In this document: positions 3,098-13,225 of the stretch, one piece after another
Position numbering within the stretch: the first letter of the stretch is position 1
Layout of the letters: every line of letters starts with the position of its first letter
NCBI GenBank assembly: GCA_016125035.1
Contig: WGMN01000001.1
Location: 258,427-322,426, forward strand
DNA from: Pseudomonadota bacterium
Lineage (GTDB): Bacteria; Pseudomonadota; Alphaproteobacteria; UBA2136; UBA6156
Reading direction: 5' to 3'
DNA: 64,000 bases
Notes under the pieces: generated by a model
Seen by the model: only the letters and a program-made list of their open reading frames with translations
Databases searched by the model: none
What the model was told of the DNA's origin: nothing
Program-made: the position numbers and the translations under genes

Positions 3098-3535
3098 ATG
3101 CGGTGGTTTTGGCTTTTGGCAGTGATGGTAGCGGCGACGGCGCAGGCCGAAGTGGTGGCGCCGTTGCGCCTGGAGCTGCGCAACGCGCTGGTGCCCGAAG
3201 GCAAGGCGCCGTGGAGCGTGGCGCTGAGCGGTGATTTATATAACCCCACCAGCGACACCGTGGTGATCAGCGGGGCGAGCTCCCCCGTTGCCGGGCAGGT
3301 GGTGCCGCAGGTGTATGGTTATGATGCGAATGGCCTGCGCCAGGTGAGCGTGCCCAAGACGCTGGTGCTGGCGCCGCGCGGCGAGCTGGAATTTACCCCC
3401 GGGCAGCGTGAGCTGAAGTTTATCGGCCTGCGGCAGGATTTGAGCGCGGGCGACGAAGTGCCGCTGTACTTAAAGGATGACAAGGGCCGGGTGCAGGTGT
3501 TCCGCGTAACGGTGATTGGCGGGGTGGCCGAGTAA
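3098..3535 (+). CDS. secreted periplasmic protein (possibly DUF461/PCuAC-like)
   Basis: Signal peptide MRWFWLLAVMVAATAQA followed by a β-rich ~125-aa domain. There is no obvious Met/His copper motif, so the family call is weak. Confidence 0.4.
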   Translation: MRWFWLLAVMVAATAQAEVVAPLRLELRNALVPEGKAPWSVALSGDLYNPTSDTVVISGASSPVAGQVVPQVYGYDANGLRQVSVPKTLVLAPRGELEFTPGQRELKFIGLRQDLSAGDEVPLYLKDDKGRVQVFRVTVIGGVAE

Positions 3536-4203
3536 TGCGCGAGGTTGTGTTTGACACCGAGACCACCGGCTTTGGCGTGGAAGAGCACCGGGTGATTGAG
3601 ATAGGCTGCGTGGAGCTGGTGAACAGGCTGCCCACCGGGCGGACCTTCCATAGTTACCTCAACCCCGAGCGGGCGATCGATTATGACTCGCAGAAGATCC
3701 ACGGCATTACCGACGAGAAGGTGAAGGATGCGCCGCGTTTTGGCGAGATCGCCGAGGGGTTGCTGGCGTTTTTTGCGGACTCTCCGCTGGTGGCGCACAA
3801 TGCGGAATTTGACTTCAGCTTTGTGAACCGCGAGTTGGCGCGCTGCAATTTGGCGCCGCTGGCCAACGAAATGCGTGACAGCCTGGCCTTGGCCAAGAAG
3901 AAACTGCCCGGCCAGCGGCACAACCTGGATGCGTTGTGCCGCTATTACAGCATTGACCTTTCCGCACGGACGTACCACGGCGCGTTGCTGGACGCCCAGT
4001 TGCTGGCGGACGTGTATGTGGAGCTGACCGGCGGCCTGCAGGGCAGCATGCAGCTGGAGGCAGTGGCGGAGAAAGTTGTGGTGGCGGACAGCGAAGTGGT
4101 GGCGGTGAGTGGCGGCGGGCTGGTGGTGGAAGCCAGCGAGGCGGAAAAAGCCGCCCATGGGGCGTTTATGGCGAAGTTTGTGCCGGGTGGGCGTTGGGAG
4201 TAG
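3535..4203 (+). CDS. dnaQ: DNA polymerase III epsilon subunit (3'-5' exonuclease)
   Basis: Exo I motif VVFDTETTG, Exo II HNAEFD and Exo III YHGALLDAQLLADVY are all present. Confidence 0.9.
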   Translation: MREVVFDTETTGFGVEEHRVIEIGCVELVNRLPTGRTFHSYLNPERAIDYDSQKIHGITDEKVKDAPRFGEIAEGLLAFFADSPLVAHNAEFDFSFVNRELARCNLAPLANEMRDSLALAKKKLPGQRHNLDALCRYYSIDLSARTYHGALLDAQLLADVYVELTGGLQGSMQLEAVAEKVVVADSEVVAVSGGGLVVEASEAEKAAHGAFMAKFVPGGRWE

Positions 4204-4211
4204 TTTTTGTA

Positions 4212-4238
4212 TTAGCACTTACTTGACTTGAGTGCTAA
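4212..4238 (+). promoter_or_regulatory. CIRCE operator (HrcA binding site)
   Basis: TTAGCACTT-N9-GAGTGCTAA, a near-perfect match to the CIRCE inverted repeat, lies directly 5' of hrcA. Confidence 0.85.
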
Positions 4239-4257
4239 TGCGCCCTATTTTGGCGCC

Positions 4258-5331
4258 ATGGACAGCAAAACACCCCATACCATCACCGAGGCCAAACCGG
4301 CCGAGAAACTGAACACCCGCGCGGCCCAGGTGCTGGCGGATGTGGTGGAGAGCTACGGGCAATCCGGTGAGCCGGTGGGCAGCCGCGCGCTGGTGGAAAG
4401 CGGCAAATACCAGCTGAGCGGGGCGAGCATAAGGAACGTGATGCAGGACCTGGAGGGCATGGGCCTGCTGACCCACCCCCACACCAGCGCCGGGCGCATG
4501 CCCACCGAGCAGGGCTACCGCTATTACGCCCAGCACCTGGTGGAGGCCGAAGAGCCTGATGCGGCGGTGAAGAAGGCGTTGGAGGAGCAGATACACATTA
4601 ACAAGAGCTCCACCCAGCTTTCTCGCGATGTGACCAGCACCCTCTCTGCCCTGACCAACTGCGCCGCGCTGGTAACCACCCCCAAGAATGACAACGACCC
4701 GTTGGAAAACATGGAATTTGTACGTCTGACCGGCGACAAAGTGCTGGTGGTGATGGTGACCAAGAGCGGCGAGATTGAAAACCGCGTGATCGAGGTGCCG
4801 GCTTTTATCGGCGCAGAGGATTTGCAAAAGGCGGCCAAGAACTTGAAGCCGATGGTGATGGGGCACACCCTGGACCAGGCGCGGACGGCGATGATCGCCG
4901 GGTTGGCCGAGCAAAAAGGCCAGGTGAACGCCATGCTGGACCAGATGATGGCCGCCGCCCATGAGTGGGGACAGCCGGTGACCGCAGATGGCGCGATGGT
5001 GGTGGCAGGCAGCACGAATTTGTTCCAGTACCCCGAGTTGGTGCGCGACAGGTTGCAGAGCCTGGTGAAGCTGTTTGAGGAAAAGCGCTTGCTGATGGCG
5101 TTGGTGGAAGAAGTGCGCGGCAGCAATGGAGTGAAGATATTTGTGGGGCATGACGTGCCGGTGGTGGGCGCGGAAGACGTGAGCATTGTGGCCGCGCCTT
5201 ATGGCCATGCAGGGAAGAAGCTGATTGGCAGTTTGGGGGTTATCGGCCCGATGAGAATGAACTATAAGCGCACGTTGGGGGTGATTGATTACACCGGCAA
5301 GTTGCTGAACCGCGTGTTGGCAGAGAAGTGA
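4258..5331 (+). CDS. hrcA: heat-inducible transcription repressor HrcA
   Basis: The family-typical N-terminal winged HTH and the C-terminal region are present. The start is placed at 4258 (MDSKTPH) because the ORF-track start at 4228 lies inside CIRCE. Confidence 0.88.
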   Translation: MDSKTPHTITEAKPAEKLNTRAAQVLADVVESYGQSGEPVGSRALVESGKYQLSGASIRNVMQDLEGMGLLTHPHTSAGRMPTEQGYRYYAQHLVEAEEPDAAVKKALEEQIHINKSSTQLSRDVTSTLSALTNCAALVTTPKNDNDPLENMEFVRLTGDKVLVVMVTKSGEIENRVIEVPAFIGAEDLQKAAKNLKPMVMGHTLDQARTAMIAGLAEQKGQVNAMLDQMMAAAHEWGQPVTADGAMVVAGSTNLFQYPELVRDRLQSLVKLFEEKRLLMALVEEVRGSNGVKIFVGHDVPVVGAEDVSIVAAPYGHAGKKLIGSLGVIGPMRMNYKRTLGVIDYTGKLLNRVLAEK

Positions 5332-5355
5332 TTGGTTATGGGTTATTGGTGATTA
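5328..5355. repeat. dispersed intergenic repeat (copy 3: GTGATTGGTTATGGGTTATTGGTGATTA)
   Basis: Seen directly. It overlaps the hrcA stop codon. Confidence 0.55.
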
Positions 5356-5367
5356 AGAAAGGAAGAT

Positions 5368-5952
5368 TTGATGGTTGAGGACAAGAACATGAAAGACGGC
5401 GCGCATATGCCGGAAGTGGATGAAGTGGTAGAGGTGGTGGATGATGCGTTGCGCGCCGAAGCCGAAGGCGCAGAGGCTGTGCATGAGACGCTGATTGCCG
5501 ACCGTGACAGCTGGAAGGATAAGGCCATGCGTGCCGCCGCCGAGGCTGAGAATGTGCGGAAACGTGCCGCCGCCGACGTGATGGAAGCGCGGCAGTACGG
5601 CATTGCCAAGTTTGCGTTGGAAATGGTGGGCGTGGGCGACAACCTGGCACGCGCGCTGGGTGCGCCGGAAGGCAACGAGAAGGCCCTGCGCGACGGGGTG
5701 GCGATGACCGCGGCGTTGCTGGAGCAGATTCTGGGCCGCTTCGGCGCGGTGAAGATTGTGGTGAAGAAGGGGGATGTGCTGAACCCGGAACTGCACCAGG
5801 CGGTAGGTGAAATGGAAAGCGGCGAAGTGGCGCCGGGCAAGATTGTGCATGAGGCGCAGGTGGGATTTACGCTGAACGGGCGGCTGCTGCGGCCGAGCAT
5901 GGTGATGGTGGCCAAAGCGCCGGAAGCGCGGGGGGGGGAGGCGGTGGCATGA
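5368..5952 (+). CDS. grpE: nucleotide exchange factor GrpE
   Basis: Acidic N-terminus, a long helix, and the C-terminal β-domain ending …FTLNGRLLRPSMVMVAKA. Confidence 0.9.
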   Translation: MMVEDKNMKDGAHMPEVDEVVEVVDDALRAEAEGAEAVHETLIADRDSWKDKAMRAAAEAENVRKRAAADVMEARQYGIAKFALEMVGVGDNLARALGAPEGNEKALRDGVAMTAALLEQILGRFGAVKIVVKKGDVLNPELHQAVGEMESGEVAPGKIVHEAQVGFTLNGRLLRPSMVMVAKAPEARGGEAVA

Positions 5953-6539
5953 ACAACGAAATCGAAGCCAAGTATTTGAGTGTAAACCTAGAAGGTTGTC
6001 GCGCAGATTTGCGCAATGCAGAATTTTCCTGCGTGCGGCCATGGAGCCTGATGCGGCGTTATACCTTTATGCTGACAGAGCTTAACCCCAGCCTGCATAA
6101 ATGGGCGCGGGTACGCGATGAAGGCGACAAAATAACAATGACCTTTAAACAGGTGCATGACGCCCAGCGCATTAACGGCACGGAAGAGGTTGAATTTGAG
6201 GTTTCTGACTTTGACAGTGCGGTTTTGTTTATGCAACGAATCGGCTTCATCCACTGGGCTTACCAGGAGAATCAGCGGGAGACATGGGTGAAGGACGGAA
6301 TAGAAGTGACCCTTAATGAATGGCCCGCCTTACCGCCCTTTGTGGAGATTGAGGCCGCCAACGAAACCCTGGTAAAAGACGCCAGCAAGGAGCTGGGTTT
6401 TGACTACGGCAAGGCAGTGTTCGGAGGTATCGGCAGGCTCTACGGCCTGCAAACCGCTTTTACGGAAGAAGATATTTCCAACGTGCGCGAACTGACTTTT
6501 TCCAAAGCAAAGACCCTGCAAGTGGAAGTTGGTACATGA
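5949..6539 (+). CDS. CYTH-domain protein (CyaB/triphosphate-tunnel metalloenzyme family)
   Basis: N-terminal EIEAKYL motif and a ~190-aa length. The start overlaps the grpE stop (ATGA). Local GC is clearly lower than the neighbouring genes. Confidence 0.65.
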   Translation: MNNEIEAKYLSVNLEGCRADLRNAEFSCVRPWSLMRRYTFMLTELNPSLHKWARVRDEGDKITMTFKQVHDAQRINGTEEVEFEVSDFDSAVLFMQRIGFIHWAYQENQRETWVKDGIEVTLNEWPALPPFVEIEAANETLVKDASKELGFDYGKAVFGGIGRLYGLQTAFTEEDISNVRELTFSKAKTLQVEVGT

Positions 6540-6994
6540 AGGACCGTTTGACCATTGTGGAGGCTTGCACCGCGGATGAGCGGGAGGCTTATTTTGGGTT
6601 GCGCCACCAGGTGTTTGTGGAAGAGCAAAATGTGCCCGAGGAGATTGAGCGCGACAGTTTTGACGAGTTGCCTGAAACCAGGCATCTGTTGGGGTATGTG
6701 GACGGCAAGCCCGCCGCCACCGTGCGGGTGACCTACCCCCAGCCGGGCAAGGCCAAGATTGGCCGCCTGGCGGTGCTGCCGGATGCGCGTGGCAGCGGCT
6801 GTGCGCGGGCGTTGCTGGAAACGGTGATGAAGGACTTCCCCGAGCAGGGCATTACCCTGGCGGTGATGAGCGCGCAGAGCTATTTGCAGCGTTTTTATGA
6901 GAGTGTGGGCTTTGTGGTGGTGGGAGAGCCCTACAAGGAAGCCGGCCTGGACCATGTGTGGATGGAAATGCCGGTGAAGGAGATGGCGGCGTGA
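6536..6994 (+). CDS. GNAT family N-acetyltransferase
   Basis: An acetyl-CoA-binding motif (RGSGCARALLE) and a GNAT-typical length. The start overlaps the CYTH stop. Confidence 0.75.
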   Translation: MKDRLTIVEACTADEREAYFGLRHQVFVEEQNVPEEIERDSFDELPETRHLLGYVDGKPAATVRVTYPQPGKAKIGRLAVLPDARGSGCARALLETVMKDFPEQGITLAVMSAQSYLQRFYESVGFVVVGEPYKEAGLDHVWMEMPVKEMAA

Positions 6995-7053
6995 CTTTCA
7001 CCGCGAGATTTTATCTTTAACAACCCTAGTATTGAGACAAAGGAGAGACGACG

Positions 7054-8967
<1,914 letters not shown>

Positions 8968-8985
8968 GGTGCCCGGAACCTGAAA

Positions 8986-9010
8986 GGGGGGCCATGGTGC
9001 CCCTTTTTTG
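8986..9010 (+). terminator. rho-independent terminator after dnaK
   Basis: GC-rich hairpin GGGGGC-catggt-GCCCC followed by TTTTTT. Confidence 0.6.
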
Positions 9011-9169
9011 TTGCCAAAAAGCTGCAATTTGTATGCAGAAAAGGGTTAAAAGCGGGGTTTTTGCTATGAAAAACTTACTTACATTGTGCTAAATAGCTGG
9101 AAAGAAAGGTGCAGGAGAGGCTTGCGCCTGCACAACCAACGACCTAAATAACCGCGGAAAGCCAAGACG

Positions 9170-9829
9170 ATGACGCGACGCTACGCCCTGTTGGCCACCA
9201 TGGTGGCCCTGCTGGCCCTGCCCGGGGCGGCTTTGGCGTGGAATAGCAATTACATGAGCGGGTATGGAGGGTCATCCGGTTACGGCGGCTCCGGGCGTTA
9301 TATGAGCGGCTATGGCGGCTCGCACGGTTATGGTGGGTCGGGGCGTTATATGAGCGGGTACTCGGGCAGCCGTGGGTCTTATACCTCGCACTACAGCCAT
9401 GGGTCGTCTTCGTACGCTTCCAGGGCGTCTTCCGGCAGCGGGACGCATTACTACCACGTAGGTGTAAGCAGCAATAATGGGGGCGGGACGTATCCGTTCA
9501 GCTTTTACCGCCGTGGCGGCTATGACACCCGCAACGGCTACACCAGTGCTTACGCCCCCACGGAACGCCCGCACCGCGCCAGCTACGAAGCCTACCTGGA
9601 GCGCCTGCACCGCAACGCCCAGCAAGGCCGCAGCAGCTACATAGACACCGAAAGCATGGCCGCGCGCCAAGCCAACCCCCGCCCGGTGGCGCTGATGGAT
9701 GTTGAGCCCGCCGCCGGGCCTGCCAACACCCAACAACAGCCCGCCATGTGCGGCAACTGGCTGGGCCGCCCGGTGGAATGCCAGGAAACCACCACCAAGT
9801 GGCAGCCGTGGATGGAGCTTTACGATTAA
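9170..9829 (+). CDS. secreted Gly/Ser/Tyr-repeat protein (hypothetical)
   Basis: Signal peptide …ALPGAALA followed by tandem RYMSGYGGSxGYGGSG repeats, then a Cys-containing C-terminal domain. It is inserted between dnaK and dnaJ. Confidence 0.6.
   Translation: MTRRYALLATMVALLALPGAALAWNSNYMSGYGGSSGYGGSGRYMSGYGGSHGYGGSGRYMSGYSGSRGSYTSHYSHGSSSYASRASSGSGTHYYHVGVSSNNGGGTYPFSFYRRGGYDTRNGYTSAYAPTERPHRASYEAYLERLHRNAQQGRSSYIDTESMAARQANPRPVALMDVEPAAGPANTQQQPAMCGNWLGRPVECQETTTKWQPWMELYD
9251..9375 (+). repeat. 54-nt tandem repeat (about 2.3 copies) encoding RYMSGYGGSHGYGGSG
   Basis: Seen directly in the nucleotide sequence. It lies inside the 9170-9829 CDS. Confidence 0.7.
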
Positions 9830-9885
9830 AACCGCCAGCCCCGTTGAGGAGGGGTTGACCGCGGCTTATCACTCGGGATATTGAA

Positions 9886-11037
9886 GTGATAATGGCGCAG
9901 GATTATTACCAGATTTTAGGCGTGGCCAAAGGGGCCAGCGAGGCCGAGCTGAAGGCCGCCTACCGCAAGGCGGCGATGAAGTATCACCCCGACCGCAACC
10001 CGGGGGATGCGGCGGCGGAGGCTAAATTCAAGGAAGCCAACGAAGCCTACGATGTGTTGCGCGACCCGCAAAAGCGCGCCGCCTATGACCGTTTTGGCCA
10101 CGACGCCTTTAAAAACGGTGGTGGTGGCGGCAACCCGTTTGGCGGCGGTGGCGGGCCGGGGGGTGGCTTCCACTTTGAAGGCAACTTTGACGACCTGTTT
10201 GAGGATTTGATGGGTGGGTTGTTTGGCGGCGGCGGACCGCAGACGCGGCGCAGCCATGTGAGCCGCGGCGCGGATTTGCGCTACAACCTGAACGTGGATT
10301 TGAAGGACGCCTACACCGGCACCAAGGTGGAAGTGGCCTATCCCACCACCGTGACCTGCGAAGTGTGCCACGGCAACGGCGCCAAGCCCGGCACCAAGCC
10401 CACCACCTGCCCCACCTGCGGCGGCGCGGGAAATGTGCACTTCCGCCAGGGGTTCTTCCAGATGAGCCGCACCTGCCCGGATTGCGGCGGCACGGGGCAG
10501 GTGATTAAGGACAAATGCCCGGAGTGCAAAGGCAGTGGCCGGTTGCGCAAGAACAAGAAATTGCAGGTGAACGTGCCCGCCGGGGTGGACGACGGCACGC
10601 GGTTGCGGCTGGCTGGAGAGGGCGAAGCCGGATTGCACGGCGGCGAAGCGGGAGACCTGTTTGTGTTTGTGAGCGTGAAGCCGCACCCGATTTTTAAGCG
10701 CGAAGGGATGAATCTGGCGATGGAAGTGCCGGTGGGCATGGTGGATGCCGCGCTGGGCACCGAGGTGGAGATACCCACCGTGACCGGCGAGAAGACCACG
10801 CTGAAGATACCCGCCGGAACGCAGCCGGGTGAAGTGGTGCGGCTGCCGGGCTTTGGCATGCCCGCCCTGGCGCGCCCGCGCGACAAGGGGGATTTGCAGG
10901 TGACGGTGGCGGTGGATGTGCCCACGCGGTTGAGCAAGGCGCAGAGGGAGGCGCTGGAAGGGTTGCGCGAGGAGCTGGGGGCGAGCCGTGGGGTTGAGGG
11001 GTTTAAGGCGAAGCTGAAGAAATTTTGGCAGGGGTAA
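9886..11037 (+). CDS. dnaJ: molecular chaperone DnaJ
   Basis: J-domain with HPDRN, a G/F-rich region, and four CxxCxGxG zinc-finger repeats. Confidence 0.97.
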   Translation: MIMAQDYYQILGVAKGASEAELKAAYRKAAMKYHPDRNPGDAAAEAKFKEANEAYDVLRDPQKRAAYDRFGHDAFKNGGGGGNPFGGGGGPGGGFHFEGNFDDLFEDLMGGLFGGGGPQTRRSHVSRGADLRYNLNVDLKDAYTGTKVEVAYPTTVTCEVCHGNGAKPGTKPTTCPTCGGAGNVHFRQGFFQMSRTCPDCGGTGQVIKDKCPECKGSGRLRKNKKLQVNVPAGVDDGTRLRLAGEGEAGLHGGEAGDLFVFVSVKPHPIFKREGMNLAMEVPVGMVDAALGTEVEIPTVTGEKTTLKIPAGTQPGEVVRLPGFGMPALARPRDKGDLQVTVAVDVPTRLSKAQREALEGLREELGASRGVEGFKAKLKKFWQG

Positions 11038-11531: not shown

Positions 11532-12224
11532 TTAATCTGCTGATTTGATTGTGTGGCGTATAAATTTTTCATCAGAATTGCAGAACTTCTCCACAGGACA
11601 AACACCACATTTGGGGGTGCGCGCGGTGCAGGTGTACCGCCCGTGGAGGATGAGCCAGTGGTGCGCGTTGAGGAGAAATTGCTGGGGGATGATGCGCATG
11701 AGGTCGGCCTCGGTTTTCTCTGGCGTGGGGGCGTTGGACAGGCCCAGGCGGCGGGCGACGCGGAAGACGTGGGTATCTACCGCCAGCGTGGGCTGCCCGA
11801 ACACCGTGTTGAGGATGACGTTGGCGGTTTTGCGGCCGACGCCGGGCAGGGCTTCCAGCTCTTCGCGCGTGTGGGGGACTTCGCCGTTGTGTTTTTCCTG
11901 CAGGATTTGCGACAGGGCGATGACGTTTTTGGCTTTGCCGCGGAACAGGCCGATGGTTTTGATGTGGGAGCTGAGGCCTGCTTCCCCCAGGGTGAGCATT
12001 TGGGAGGGGGTGTGGATTTTATCGAACAACTCTGCGGTGGCTTTGTTGACGCCTTTATCGGTGGCCTGGGCGGAAAGCACCACCGCCACCAGCAGCTGGT
12101 AGGGGTTGTGGGCGATGAGCTCGGTGGTGGGAGAGGGCTGCCGCTTTTGGAAAGTGGTGAAGATGGCGTTGATGCGCGCGGCTTGACCTGCCGGGCTGCG
12201 TTTTACGCCTTTGGTTTGGCCCAT
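11532..12224 (-). CDS. nth: endonuclease III
   Basis: HhH-GPD motif (LPGVGRKTANVIL) and the C-terminal [4Fe-4S] cluster motif C-x6-C-x2-C-x5-C. Confidence 0.93.
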   Translation of the reverse strand: MGQTKGVKRSPAGQAARINAIFTTFQKRQPSPTTELIAHNPYQLLVAVVLSAQATDKGVNKATAELFDKIHTPSQMLTLGEAGLSSHIKTIGLFRGKAKNVIALSQILQEKHNGEVPHTREELEALPGVGRKTANVILNTVFGQPTLAVDTHVFRVARRLGLSNAPTPEKTEADLMRIIPQQFLLNAHHWLILHGRYTCTARTPKCGVCPVEKFCNSDEKFIRHTIKSAD

Positions 12225-13225
12225 GTTTGGTACCAGGTGTTGAGGCGGGTGAGGCCGACCTCCAGCGGGGTGGAGGGGGCCCAGCCGACGGCTTTTTTGA
12301 GTTTGGCGGTGGAGGCGGAGGTTTTATAGACCTCGGTGGCGGGCCAGCCCTCCAGCTTGAGGTTGGCTTTTTTGCCGGTGACCTTCTCCAGCGTTTTGAT
12401 GAAGGAGAGCATCTGCACCGGATTTTGGTTGCCGAGGTTGTAGAGGGTGTGGGGCGTGGGGGTTGCCGCCGGTGCGTGGGGCATGAGGCGGAGGATGGCT
12501 TCCACGATGTCATCCACGTAGGTGAAGTCGCGCCACAGATCGCCTTTGTTGAAGAGTTTGATGGGCTGCTTTTTGTAGAGGGCCTCGGTGAACATCAAGG
12601 GCGTCATGTCTGGGCGGCCCCAGGGGCCGTAGACGGTGAAGAAGCGCAAGCCCGAGGACGGCGTGCCGAACTGGTGCGCCCAGGCGTGGGTGAGCATTTC
12701 ATCCGCGCGTTTGGTGGCGGCATAAAGGCTGACCGGGCGCGAGACGTCATCGGCTTCCGCAAACGGTTTGGTGGGCTTGCCGGGTTGGGCGTTGGCGCCG
12801 TAGACGCTGGACGAGCTGGCGTAGAGCAGGTGCTTGATGGGGGCTTTGGCATCCGCCAGCGCTTTGCAGGCCTGGAGCACGGTGAAGTGACCGATGAGGT
12901 TGGAGTTAAGGTAATCCACCTGGTTGATGAGGCCGTAGCGCACCCCCGCCTGCGCGGCGAGGTGGATGATGTGCGAGGGCTTGGTGGCCAGGGCGAGTTT
13001 GATGACCGCCTTGCTGTTGGCGAGATCCAGCTTTTTGAAGGTGAAGTTTTTGGCCTTGGGGTGGCGGGCAAGTTCGCTCAATCGGGCTTTTTTGAGCTTG
13101 GGGCTGTAGTAGCTGTTGAGGTTATCCAGGCCCACGACCTTATAGCCTTCATCCAGCAGGCGGCGGGTGACGGCGAAGCCGATGAAGCCTGCGGCGCCGG
13201 TGACGAGAATGGGGGATTTAGGCAT
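12203..13225 (-). CDS. NAD-dependent nucleotide-sugar epimerase (SDR family, UDP-glucuronate 4-epimerase-like)
   Basis: Rossmann motif TGAAGFIG and catalytic YxxxK (YAATK). Confidence 0.85.
   Translation of the reverse strand: MPKSPILVTGAAGFIGFAVTRRLLDEGYKVVGLDNLNSYYSPKLKKARLSELARHPKAKNFTFKKLDLANSKAVIKLALATKPSHIIHLAAQAGVRYGLINQVDYLNSNLIGHFTVLQACKALADAKAPIKHLLYASSSSVYGANAQPGKPTKPFAEADDVSRPVSLYAATKRADEMLTHAWAHQFGTPSSGLRFFTVYGPWGRPDMTPLMFTEALYKKQPIKLFNKGDLWRDFTYVDDIVEAILRLMPHAPAATPTPHTLYNLGNQNPVQMLSFIKTLEKVTGKKANLKLEGWPATEVYKTSASTAKLKKAVGWAPSTPLEVGLTRLNTWYQTWAKPKA

Follow-up and report, generated by a model that had tools for sequence, protein, structure and literature searches.

Introduction

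Heat-shock operons are among the best-studied bacterial gene clusters, and their products are regarded as cytoplasmic. Some dnaK operons carry accessory genes, such as dafA of Thermus thermophilus (gene order dnaK-grpE-dnaJ-dafA) and the extra open reading frames (ORFs) of the Bacillus subtilis hrcA-grpE-dnaK-dnaJ operon. Here, an ORF located between dnaK and dnaJ, called X, is described in a 64,000-nucleotide (nt) stretch of alphaproteobacterial DNA (assembly GCA_016125035.1, contig WGMN01000001.1, positions 258,427 to 322,426). This whole stretch is referred to as the window, and its own numbering is used below. Judged from sequence comparison, X belongs to a family of predicted exported proteins that is new, conserved and narrowly distributed in uncultured alphaproteobacteria, and the strict genetic link of such a family to the DnaK chaperone system is unusual. 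Like DafA and the Bacillus ORFs, X is small, lineage-specific and kept in a chaperone cluster of the HrcA/CIRCE type (CIRCE, controlling inverted repeat of chaperone expression, the operator bound by the repressor HrcA). Unlike those cytoplasmic proteins, X starts with a signal peptide and has a conserved pair of Cys residues, and is therefore predicted to be extracytoplasmic.

Several groups of exported or low-complexity proteins can be compared with X. In its proposed working mode it resembles the ATP-independent periplasmic stress chaperones Spy/CpxP/ZraP, HdeA/B and Skp, which are small, exported, stress-linked and partly disordered. However, X is without LTxxQ motifs, is dominated by Gly/Ser/Tyr low complexity and has no sequence or fold match to these proteins, which belong to envelope-stress regulons and not to the dnaK operon. 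The FUS-type prion-like domains of low complexity, with their [G/S]Y[G/S] sticker-spacer sequences, are similar to the low-complexity region of X in composition, Tyr spacing, Arg content and predicted disorder, a resemblance that is compositional only; X differs in being bacterial, exported and Gln-free (over the 107-residue region compared) and in having a specific Y[LM]SxY motif. The BA14K-like proteins (PF07886) of Rhizobiales also come from alphaproteobacteria; they are basic, rich in Tyr, Gly and Arg, and combine a signal peptide with a conserved C-terminal module that holds a Cys pair. The motif order of X is different, and BA14K genes are not known to be linked to dnaK. Curli CsgA and other functional amyloids of bacteria share with X export, repeats and a high content of Gly and Ser. 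The repeat of X, in contrast, is a 16-residue unit built on a Tyr motif and not a Gln/Asn-rich strand-loop-strand.

X is a real gene between dnaK and dnaJ

The three genes in question are arranged in the window as follows.

7054–8967, + strand: dnaK, 637 amino acids (aa), protein MBI1308502.1, Pfam HSP70 match with E = 2e-271
9170–9829, + strand: X, coding sequence of a Gly/Ser/Tyr-rich protein of 219 aa, predicted to be exported
9892–11037, + strand: dnaJ, 381 aa from the ATG at 9892, with Pfam domains DnaJ, DnaJ_C and DnaJ_CXXCXGXG

The coordinates, strand and length of X agree with those given in an earlier note made from the sequence alone, and both flanking genes were confirmed by Pfam. 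X is a real gene under purifying selection and not an artefact of GC-rich repeats, which the earlier note had named as the outcome that would speak against it. The decisive evidence is conservation, as relatives carry homologous ORFs at the same position. The GC content at third codon positions (GC3) of X is 0.77, and that of hrcA, grpE, GNAT, dnaK and dnaJ is 0.76–0.80. For the pair of related loci L008 and L081, the ratio of nonsynonymous to synonymous substitution rates (dN/dS) of X is 0.26 at an unsaturated dS of 0.61, and that of the adjoining 3' end of dnaK is 0.12.

Database searches with X as the single query found no relative. Neither Pfam nor NCBIfam gave a match, nothing was obtained from a word-indexed search of 5.8 billion proteins or from exact-sequence look-up, and scans of genome and metagenome contigs with back-translated patterns of X were without a match. 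The 219-aa product and the 209-aa product starting at Met11 are both absent from a collection of 15 billion proteins. A second strain of the window organism was not found by protein look-ups or by genome and metagenome contig scans. The 381-aa DnaJ (P0055) has an exact copy in the protein collection solely from a Logan contig, and the DnaJ of the window shares a 90%-identity cluster with MBI1308504.1 (P0056), a DnaJ of 382 aa. Since MBI1308502.1 is DnaK and MBI1308504.1 is DnaJ, the accession MBI1308503.1 must fall between them. An Rfam scan of the whole window found no RNA family, and therefore no RNA thermometer or small RNA accounts for the region.

Predicted layout and structure of X

The features of the protein are listed below with the coordinates of their codons.

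9170–9238, + strand: signal peptide, residues 1–23 (MTRRYALLATMVALLALPGAALA), read from the sequence, with a predicted signal peptidase I site ALA|W
9239–9559, + strand: Gly/Ser/Tyr-rich region, residues 24–130, disordered according to composition and AlphaFold2
9248–9391, + strand: three tandem units of 48 nt (16 codons) with one YMSGY each, the third unit degenerate
9569–9634, + strand: PHRASY motif (residues 134–139) and amphipathic helix, residues 134–155 (AlphaFold2), with P-H-R conserved
9749–9808, + strand: two-cysteine loop and tail, C194-GNWLGRPVE-C204-QETTTKWQP

In the N-terminus, MTRRYALLATMVALLALPGAALA|WNS, a basic n-region leads into a hydrophobic core some 18 residues long, and A-L-A occupies positions -3 to -1. 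By inspection, n-region, h-region and the small residues at -3 and -1 are those of a Sec-type signal peptide, which suggests that X is exported via Sec and cleaved, leaving a mature protein of about 196 residues. The n-region (9170–9190) reads T-R-R-Y-A-L-L, with a superficial likeness to the twin-arginine (Tat) motif S/T-R-R-x-F-L-K, and L001 has R-R-Y-L. Export as a Tat substrate was considered and rejected, since the Arg pair is absent in most family members (for example MKAQHRQ, MKSALLL and MKTALTL); the Tat-like n-region of X is probably incidental. X is also no candidate lipoprotein, as there is no Cys in or near its signal peptide and the LALC of L001 has Leu at -1, unlike the lipobox [LVI][ASTVI][GAS]C.

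The signal peptide is followed by YMSGY-bearing repeats and a Cys-containing C-terminal part, as the earlier note had described, and only the DNA period of the repeat had to be corrected from 54 to 48 nt. Tandem Repeats Finder reports 9250–9357 with a period of 48 nt, 2.2 copies, 81% matches and a score of 139, and a third, degenerate unit extends to 9391. At the peptide level the units are NYMSGYGGSSGYGGSG, RYMSGYGGSHGYGGSG and RYMSGYSGSRGSYTSH, in which the YMSGY motifs begin at residues 28, 44 and 60. The first two copies differ at 13 of 48 nt, with nine of these differences at third codon positions and only two amino acid changes. Because the differences are mostly synonymous, the duplication appears to be old and kept by selection on the protein. 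For the same reason, copies with 73% DNA identity are a poor substrate for slippage.

Residues 24–130 (107 aa) contain 27 Gly (25%), 25 Ser (23%), 18 Tyr (17%) and 7 Arg (7%), with an isoelectric point (pI) of 9.6. A Tyr stands every 4–7 residues, there are five [GS]Y[GS] triplets, and the only hydrophobic residues are the regularly spaced Leu/Met of Y[LM]SxY. The C-terminal part is acidic (pI 5.6) and holds the only two cysteines of the protein, C194 and C204. Two conserved Cys in an exported protein would be expected to form a C194–C204 disulfide.

AlphaFold2 models had a mean predicted local distance difference test score (pLDDT) of 43 with an alignment of six family sequences and 58 with 44. 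The sole confident element is a helix at residues 136–155 (pLDDT 82–90), and with the 44-sequence alignment residues 131–150 score 82–90. The Gly/Ser/Tyr region has block-mean pLDDT values of about 42–55, mostly below 50, without secondary structure, and is predicted to be disordered. Neither model contains a beta strand. A Foldseek search of the model against the Protein Data Bank (PDB) gave no match, which is a weak test for a disordered, low-confidence model.

These features bear on the proposal of the earlier note that X is a structural or amyloid-like extracellular protein, which could act as a fibre, matrix or adhesive through Tyr cross-beta structure or Tyr cross-linking. The Gly/Ser/Tyr composition with a Tyr spacing of 4–7 is similar to that of labile cross-beta polymers and Gly/Tyr structural proteins. 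The protein is predicted to be exported and has a Cys pair, and the weak, composition-driven Pfam matches are to Chorion_3 and Keratin_2_tail. However, there is no match to Curlin or any other amyloid family, no beta-solenoid or strand in the AlphaFold2 models, and no nucleator, secretion or assembly gene among the neighbours checked; a curli-type amyloid in particular was rejected, with no Curlin repeats in Pfam and no csgB/E/F/G-like neighbours. No outer-membrane secretion signal is present, so the default destination would be the periplasm. The conservation sits in a short motif and the C-terminal module while the length of the Gly/Ser/Tyr region is free, and the residence in a chaperone operon is left unexplained. 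The amyloid proposal is not supported by any positive finding, and a structural or amyloid role of X is considered improbable.

X belongs to a conserved protein family

To collect relatives, 80 alphaproteobacterial dnaK loci were fetched and searched with X by tblastn. The C-terminal half of X matched DNA that adjoins the 3' end of dnaK in L001 (E = 4e-9) and, weakly, in L008, which are the loci with the most similar DnaK (87% and 83% identical). The matched stretches are ORFs that encode 128 and 131 aa and are laid out like X. By tblastn, X alone matches L001, L089, L090 and L091 at E-values from 4e-9 to 9e-21. A three-sequence profile led to five proteins, and a six-sequence profile run exhaustively against 1.84 billion representatives led to 41 proteins of 105–229 aa with E < 1e-3, among which the window product was not returned. 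X scores E = 4.3e-26 against the 44-member profile, a partly circular value because the profile contains X. The relatives are unnamed or annotated as hypothetical protein, and all come from metagenome-assembled genomes or metagenomes. Literature searches gave no description of such a gene.

The 44 aligned members matched nothing in Pfam or NCBIfam beyond composition noise, and the family profile found no relative among the PDB sequences. A metagenome scan with the family alignment gave 65 stretches, none of which was confirmed against the window protein by a confirmation step that is too strict for a divergent family. A word-indexed search with the 44-member alignment gave six proteins and was dominated by low-complexity words. 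P0043 was left out of the family alignment. This 158-aa protein has 3–4 tandem copies of 'HPPCGAYLSQPLVCTST', which resembles the PPCGxYxRxPxxC loop described below; it is without a signal peptide or a Gly/Ser/Tyr region, and may stem from spurious translation or be a repeat with no relation to the family.

The members share a signal peptide, a Gly/Ser/Tyr region, a PHRxxW motif with a following helix rich in Arg, Lys, Gln, Glu and Ala, a PPCGxYxRxPxxC loop and often a TTxW[ND]P tail. The rows displayed from the alignment of 44 members have A-x-A before their first Tyr motif; immediately before this motif, a single Ala column is conserved in at least 90% of members. The C204 column is invariant, and the C194 and G195 columns are at least 90% conserved. 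Window X has the same layout with ALA|W, three YMSGY, PHRASY and C194-x9-C204. The Y[LMI]SxY motif starts a few residues past the cleavage site and is present in 1–3 copies at a spacing of 10–16 residues. It occurs 41 times in 25 of the 44 members, compared with a mean of 0.36 and a maximum of 3 in composition-preserving shuffles. Since the window repeat consists of three copies of this family motif, it is best read as a multiplied functional motif and not as anonymous low complexity.

The length of the Gly/Ser/Tyr region varies from about 40 to 130 residues between members. The closest relative of X is P0028 (229 aa, locus L089), which has the C-terminal two-thirds in common with X. In L089 a 39-nt tandem repeat at 5390–5490 encodes GRDFHY-type units, unlike the unit of the window, and P0024 has SRYGSGS-type repeats in its disordered region. 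The expansion of different units in P0028 and P0024 indicates that tandem duplication of Tyr units is recurrent and independent over long evolutionary times. Among close relatives, each of the six proteins in the P0009 cluster is 142 aa long, and nine contigs from several samples carry P0004 without any difference. Together with the 73% identity of the old repeat copies, this lack of length variation makes a rapid strain-to-strain change of the repeat number unlikely on the little data at hand; the earlier note had considered a variation between strains possible.

The family is kept between dnaK and dnaJ

A family member lies in the dnaK-dnaJ interval in 12 of 12 informative contexts, namely the window, L001/L085-88, L008, L081, L082/83, L084, L089, L091-93, L094, L095, L096 and L097. 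L090, a contig of 903 nt, is too short and stands outside this count. When all ORFs of the window and 97 loci were searched with the family hidden Markov model (HMM), each X-bearing locus had one copy. The other 78 alphaproteobacterial dnaK loci had no member, and there was no paralogue in the window. X does split the usual dnaK-dnaJ pair, but it is not a one-off insertion; the arrangement is lineage-wide. Long dnaK-dnaJ gaps in Devosia (L014) and Maricaulis (L042) were considered and rejected, as they contain long ORFs unrelated to X. Identity to the DnaK of the window goes down to about 73–75% for full-length proteins, and partial C-terminal fragments have 51–62%. Retention of the position across such diverged lineages, at a dN/dS of about 0.26 in the unsaturated pair, argues for a functional linkage.

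The gene orders at the loci are as follows.

Window: RNase T (3535–4203), CIRCE (4212–4238), hrcA, grpE, CYTH, GNAT, dnaK, X, dnaJ
Window, 3' of dnaJ: a 118-aa ORF (- strand), nth (endonuclease III), an ORF at 12203–13225 (- strand)
L085: RNaseT-hrcA-grpE-BroN-CYTH-dnaK-X-dnaJ
L089: hrcA-grpE-dnaK-X-dnaJ
L091: dnaK-X-HD-dnaJ...nth...epimerase
L094: RNaseT-hrcA-grpE-dnaK-119aa-X-dnaJ...nth...epimerase
L096: RNaseT-hrcA-grpE-dnaK-X
L097: dnaK-HAD-X-dnaJ
L081, L082, L084, L095: short contigs, with the upstream fragment identified as DnaK by tblastn

In the window, Pfam confirmed RNase_T, HrcA, GrpE, HSP70 and DnaJ, and dnaK is the final gene of the compact hrcA-grpE-CYTH-GNAT-dnaK run. The ORF at 12203–13225 is a putative epimerase gene, from its position and from the Epimerase matches at the equivalent place in L091 and L094. 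The RNaseT-hrcA-grpE-...-dnaK-...-dnaJ cluster (window 3535–11037; L085, L089, L094 and L096) is of Gram-positive style in an alphaproteobacterial lineage. It also gathers accessory genes: CYTH and GNAT in the window, Bro-N and CYTH in L085, an HD phosphohydrolase in L008, L081 and L091, a HAD hydrolase in L097, ASCH in L096 and an exported-looking 119-aa ORF in L094 (4632–4991).

A different explanation for the position is that X is a small basic protein binding an anionic envelope component, such as lipopolysaccharide (LPS), phospholipid or peptidoglycan, and that its place next to dnaK is historical and held by operon inertia. X would then be an analogue of the BA14K-like or glycine-zipper small proteins known from alphaproteobacteria. 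The median pI of mature members, about 9.6, is basic, and in short-form members the second Cys is directly followed by a tail rich in Lys and Arg (CKRR, CKKVK and CKNGRRR are examples). The presence of unrelated accessory genes in the dnaK-dnaJ interval of relatives is also consistent with this explanation. However, not one of the 44 members matches BA14K (PF07886) or the glycine-zipper families (PF13488, PF13441, PF05433), which had been tried as candidates, even at E <= 1. The C-terminal part of window X is acidic, and the strict retention of the position across diverged lineages favours a functional linkage. Envelope binding with a merely historical position is therefore rather improbable.

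The small size, the cationic and Gly/Tyr-rich composition and the single Cys pair would also fit a secreted, disulfide-containing antimicrobial or signalling peptide; this composition recalls eukaryotic Gly/Tyr-rich antimicrobial peptides. Such a role is very improbable. No immunity, processing or export genes were seen in the loci with enough flanking sequence, the N-terminus is a Sec signal peptide instead of a bacteriocin leader, and the gene has a conserved core position in a housekeeping operon under purifying selection and not a patchy, mobile distribution.

Transcriptional organisation of the locus

The putative control elements of the window are listed below.

4212–4238, + strand: canonical CIRCE TTAGCACTT-N9-GAGTGCTAA with one mismatch, ahead of hrcA
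8982–9009, + strand: terminator-like hairpin GGGGC-CATGGT-GCCCC followed by TTTTTT, read from the sequence and its fold
9121–9149, + strand: promoter-like CTTGCG-N16-CCTAAAT, starting about 110 nt past the hairpin and ending 20 nt before the start of X
9855–9892, + strand: dnaJ control region with sigma70-like TTGACC-16-GATATT, overlapped by a CIRCE-like palindrome
9866–9892, + strand: CIRCE-like TTATCACTC-N9-AAGTGATAA, abutting the dnaJ ATG, 0.01 expected per window

In several relatives, X is placed tightly behind dnaK. The start of X overlaps the dnaK stop in L008 (TAATG) and L081 (TGATG), and the gap between dnaK and X is 10–39 nt in L096, L001, L095 and L084. The distance from X to dnaJ is 18 nt in L085 and L097. 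In L001, L008, L081, L084, L094 and L096, X lies within the operon with no room for a terminator. From these overlaps and short gaps X is expected to be on the dnaK message at such loci, and to be translationally coupled in L008 and L081. No Shine-Dalgarno sequence is found ahead of X in L008, L081 or L082. These three loci have in common a stretch GTTGACGT..CGCCC..ACCCACAAC..GTAATG before the X start (L008 8385–8425, L081 464–504, L082 520–560), which lies in the coding end of dnaK in L008 and L081 and in non-coding DNA past the terminator in L082. Its role could be that of an internal promoter or of an element for translation initiation.

The window is organised in a different way. The hairpin at 8982–9009 stands between dnaK and X, and analogous terminators are found 3' of dnaK in L082 and L089. 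It was not listed by a consensus terminator scanner, and the fold z-score of the 66-nt stretch is unremarkable. Another hairpin followed by a run of T, also terminator-like, is read on the - strand at 9022–9038 (CTGCATACAAATTGCAG CTTTTTGG); it is probably a chance match, and no gene of that strand enters it. Counterparts of the promoter-like site at 9121–9149 stand before X in L090 and L095. Across 64 kilobases (kb), CTTG-N17-18-CYTAWNT occurs three times against 0.43 expected, once before hrcA and once before X. The RpoH consensus of Sinorhizobium meliloti is quoted as CTTGAA/CTTGCC-N15-16-CCTATAT/CCTATCT (PMC4843759), and the site resembles this consensus, although alphaproteobacterial housekeeping promoters look alike. 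CIRCE elements flank X at 4212 (before hrcA) and 9866 (before dnaJ). With a terminator, a promoter-like site of its own and no CIRCE, X of the window appears to be a separate unit that has kept its position. In the long-form subgroup (window, L089 and L090), X is likewise predicted to be a separate unit flanked by HrcA-controlled chaperone genes.

The CIRCE consensus used was TTAGCACTC-N9-GAGTGCTAA. The hrcA CIRCE of the window overlaps a promoter-like CTTGAC-N16-CCTATTT (4222–4250) at the head of the heat-shock cluster. CIRCE is also found upstream of hrcA in L001 (3365–3391), L008 (4846–4872), L089 (1210–1236), L094 (998–1024) and L096 (866–892). In the window the CTTGAC box, similar to a -35 element, is in the 9-nt spacer of the CIRCE (TTAGCACTT-ACTTGACTT-GAGTGCTAA). 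CTTGAC or TTGAC is in the spacers of the window, L001, L008 and L089 (GGTTGACTT), and the spacers of L094 and L096 are without it. With the -35-like box inside the spacer, the HrcA site would be directly atop the promoter. The variant before dnaJ is symmetric, with G-to-T and C-to-A changes on both arms, and is also present before dnaJ in L089 (5879–5905) and L091 (2221–2247). In L090 it is 3' of X (807–833), with no dnaJ detected on the contig. As the variant ends at the ATG, the putative HrcA-controlled dnaJ transcript is suggested to be leaderless or nearly so.

The operon structure of the relatives could have another reason. The Tyr-rich X precursor may be aggregation-prone and depend on DnaK/DnaJ as a client for its export; gene adjacency and coupling would then put the chaperone at the same place and time, and the final role of X, as envelope material, adhesive or matrix, would be unrelated to heat shock. 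DnaK/DnaJ can support the export of some Escherichia coli precursors, and operon order can promote co-translational capture of partners, both of which are in favour of a client. The overlap of the X start with the dnaK stop in L008 and L081 fits as well, as does the constant place of X between the genes of chaperone and co-chaperone, and the spaced Leu/Met of Y[LM]SxY could be Hsp70 sites. However, Gly/Ser-rich sequences are generally poor Hsp70 substrates, and the terminators between dnaK and X in the window, L082 and L089 indicate that physical coupling is dispensable. An export client of DnaK/DnaJ with a role outside the heat-shock response is thus unlikely, though less so than the other alternatives to a protective role.

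Discussion

These results confirm what had been observed in the sequence, and the interpretation given to it in the earlier note is partly supported. An exported protein cannot act with cytoplasmic DnaK, and the linkage must therefore be regulatory or concern the time before export. From the position of X, the heat-shock response would seem to have a branch in the envelope. The explanation favoured here, which is held tentatively, is that X may be an abundant, ATP-independent stress protectant of the periplasm or envelope that is made alongside the DnaK system.

According to this proposal, X would be an accessory member of the HrcA/CIRCE cluster that is co-transcribed with dnaK in relatives. 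DnaK is one of the most abundant proteins of the cell, and X would be produced in bulk whenever the DnaK system is produced; its operon membership and coupling in relatives are the reason to expect high, stress-linked expression, including induction by heat. After export, the Tyr residues, with Arg, may act as 'stickers' between Gly/Ser 'spacers'. When envelope proteins unfold and expose aromatic or hydrophobic segments, these stickers and the Y[LM]SxY motifs would attach to such segments, or alternatively to one another. The helix and the Cys-loop could form a module for oligomerisation or anchoring, in which a disulfide presumably forms between the two Cys once the protein has left the cytoplasm.

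Several points weigh against a stress protectant. Heat-shock co-regulation is weakest in the window itself, because the hairpin splits X from dnaK and there is no CIRCE within four mismatches in 8968–9169. Alphaproteobacterial sigma70 promoters also read CTTGAC-N17-CTATAT, and since the consensus sequences are alike, the promoter-like site of X fits either sigma32 or a housekeeping sigma factor. X has no similarity to known periplasmic chaperones in Pfam, NCBIfam, the PDB sequences or Foldseek. Its export was judged by eye, and every member of the family is metagenome-derived. HD, HAD, ASCH and the 119-aa ORF also occupy the dnaK-dnaJ interval in relatives, and the linkage could reflect a permissive insertion site or the handling of an aggregation-prone precursor by DnaK/DnaJ.

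A bolder form of the protectant proposal is that X is an exported bacterial counterpart of the Tyr/Gly/Ser sticker-spacer proteins of eukaryotes, near-stoichiometric with DnaK, that would form a temperature-responsive condensate or gel in the periplasm, where ATP is absent, and so shield unfolding envelope proteins. Y[LM]SxY would then be a sticker for clients or for X itself, and the helix with the disulfide loop would provide valency or anchoring. This is quite improbable as a whole. If true, this would make X both the first heat-shock protein with phase separation in a bacterial envelope and the first case of a dnaK operon with a hard-wired extracytoplasmic arm.

From an exported, largely disordered protein encoded between dnaK and dnaJ, it would seem that an envelope component has been built directly into the cytoplasmic proteostasis regulon of at least one bacterial lineage. 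If X is protective, its family would provide a compact model, of 105–230 residues, for ATP-independent periplasmic protection by a low-complexity Tyr/Gly/Ser sequence. If X instead depends on DnaK/DnaJ as an obligate client, chaperone-assisted export could be studied in it as a natural system. Either way, X defines a new family with the signature Y[LM]SxY, PHRxxW and PPCGxYxRxPxxC, whose members the databases leave unnamed or hypothetical.

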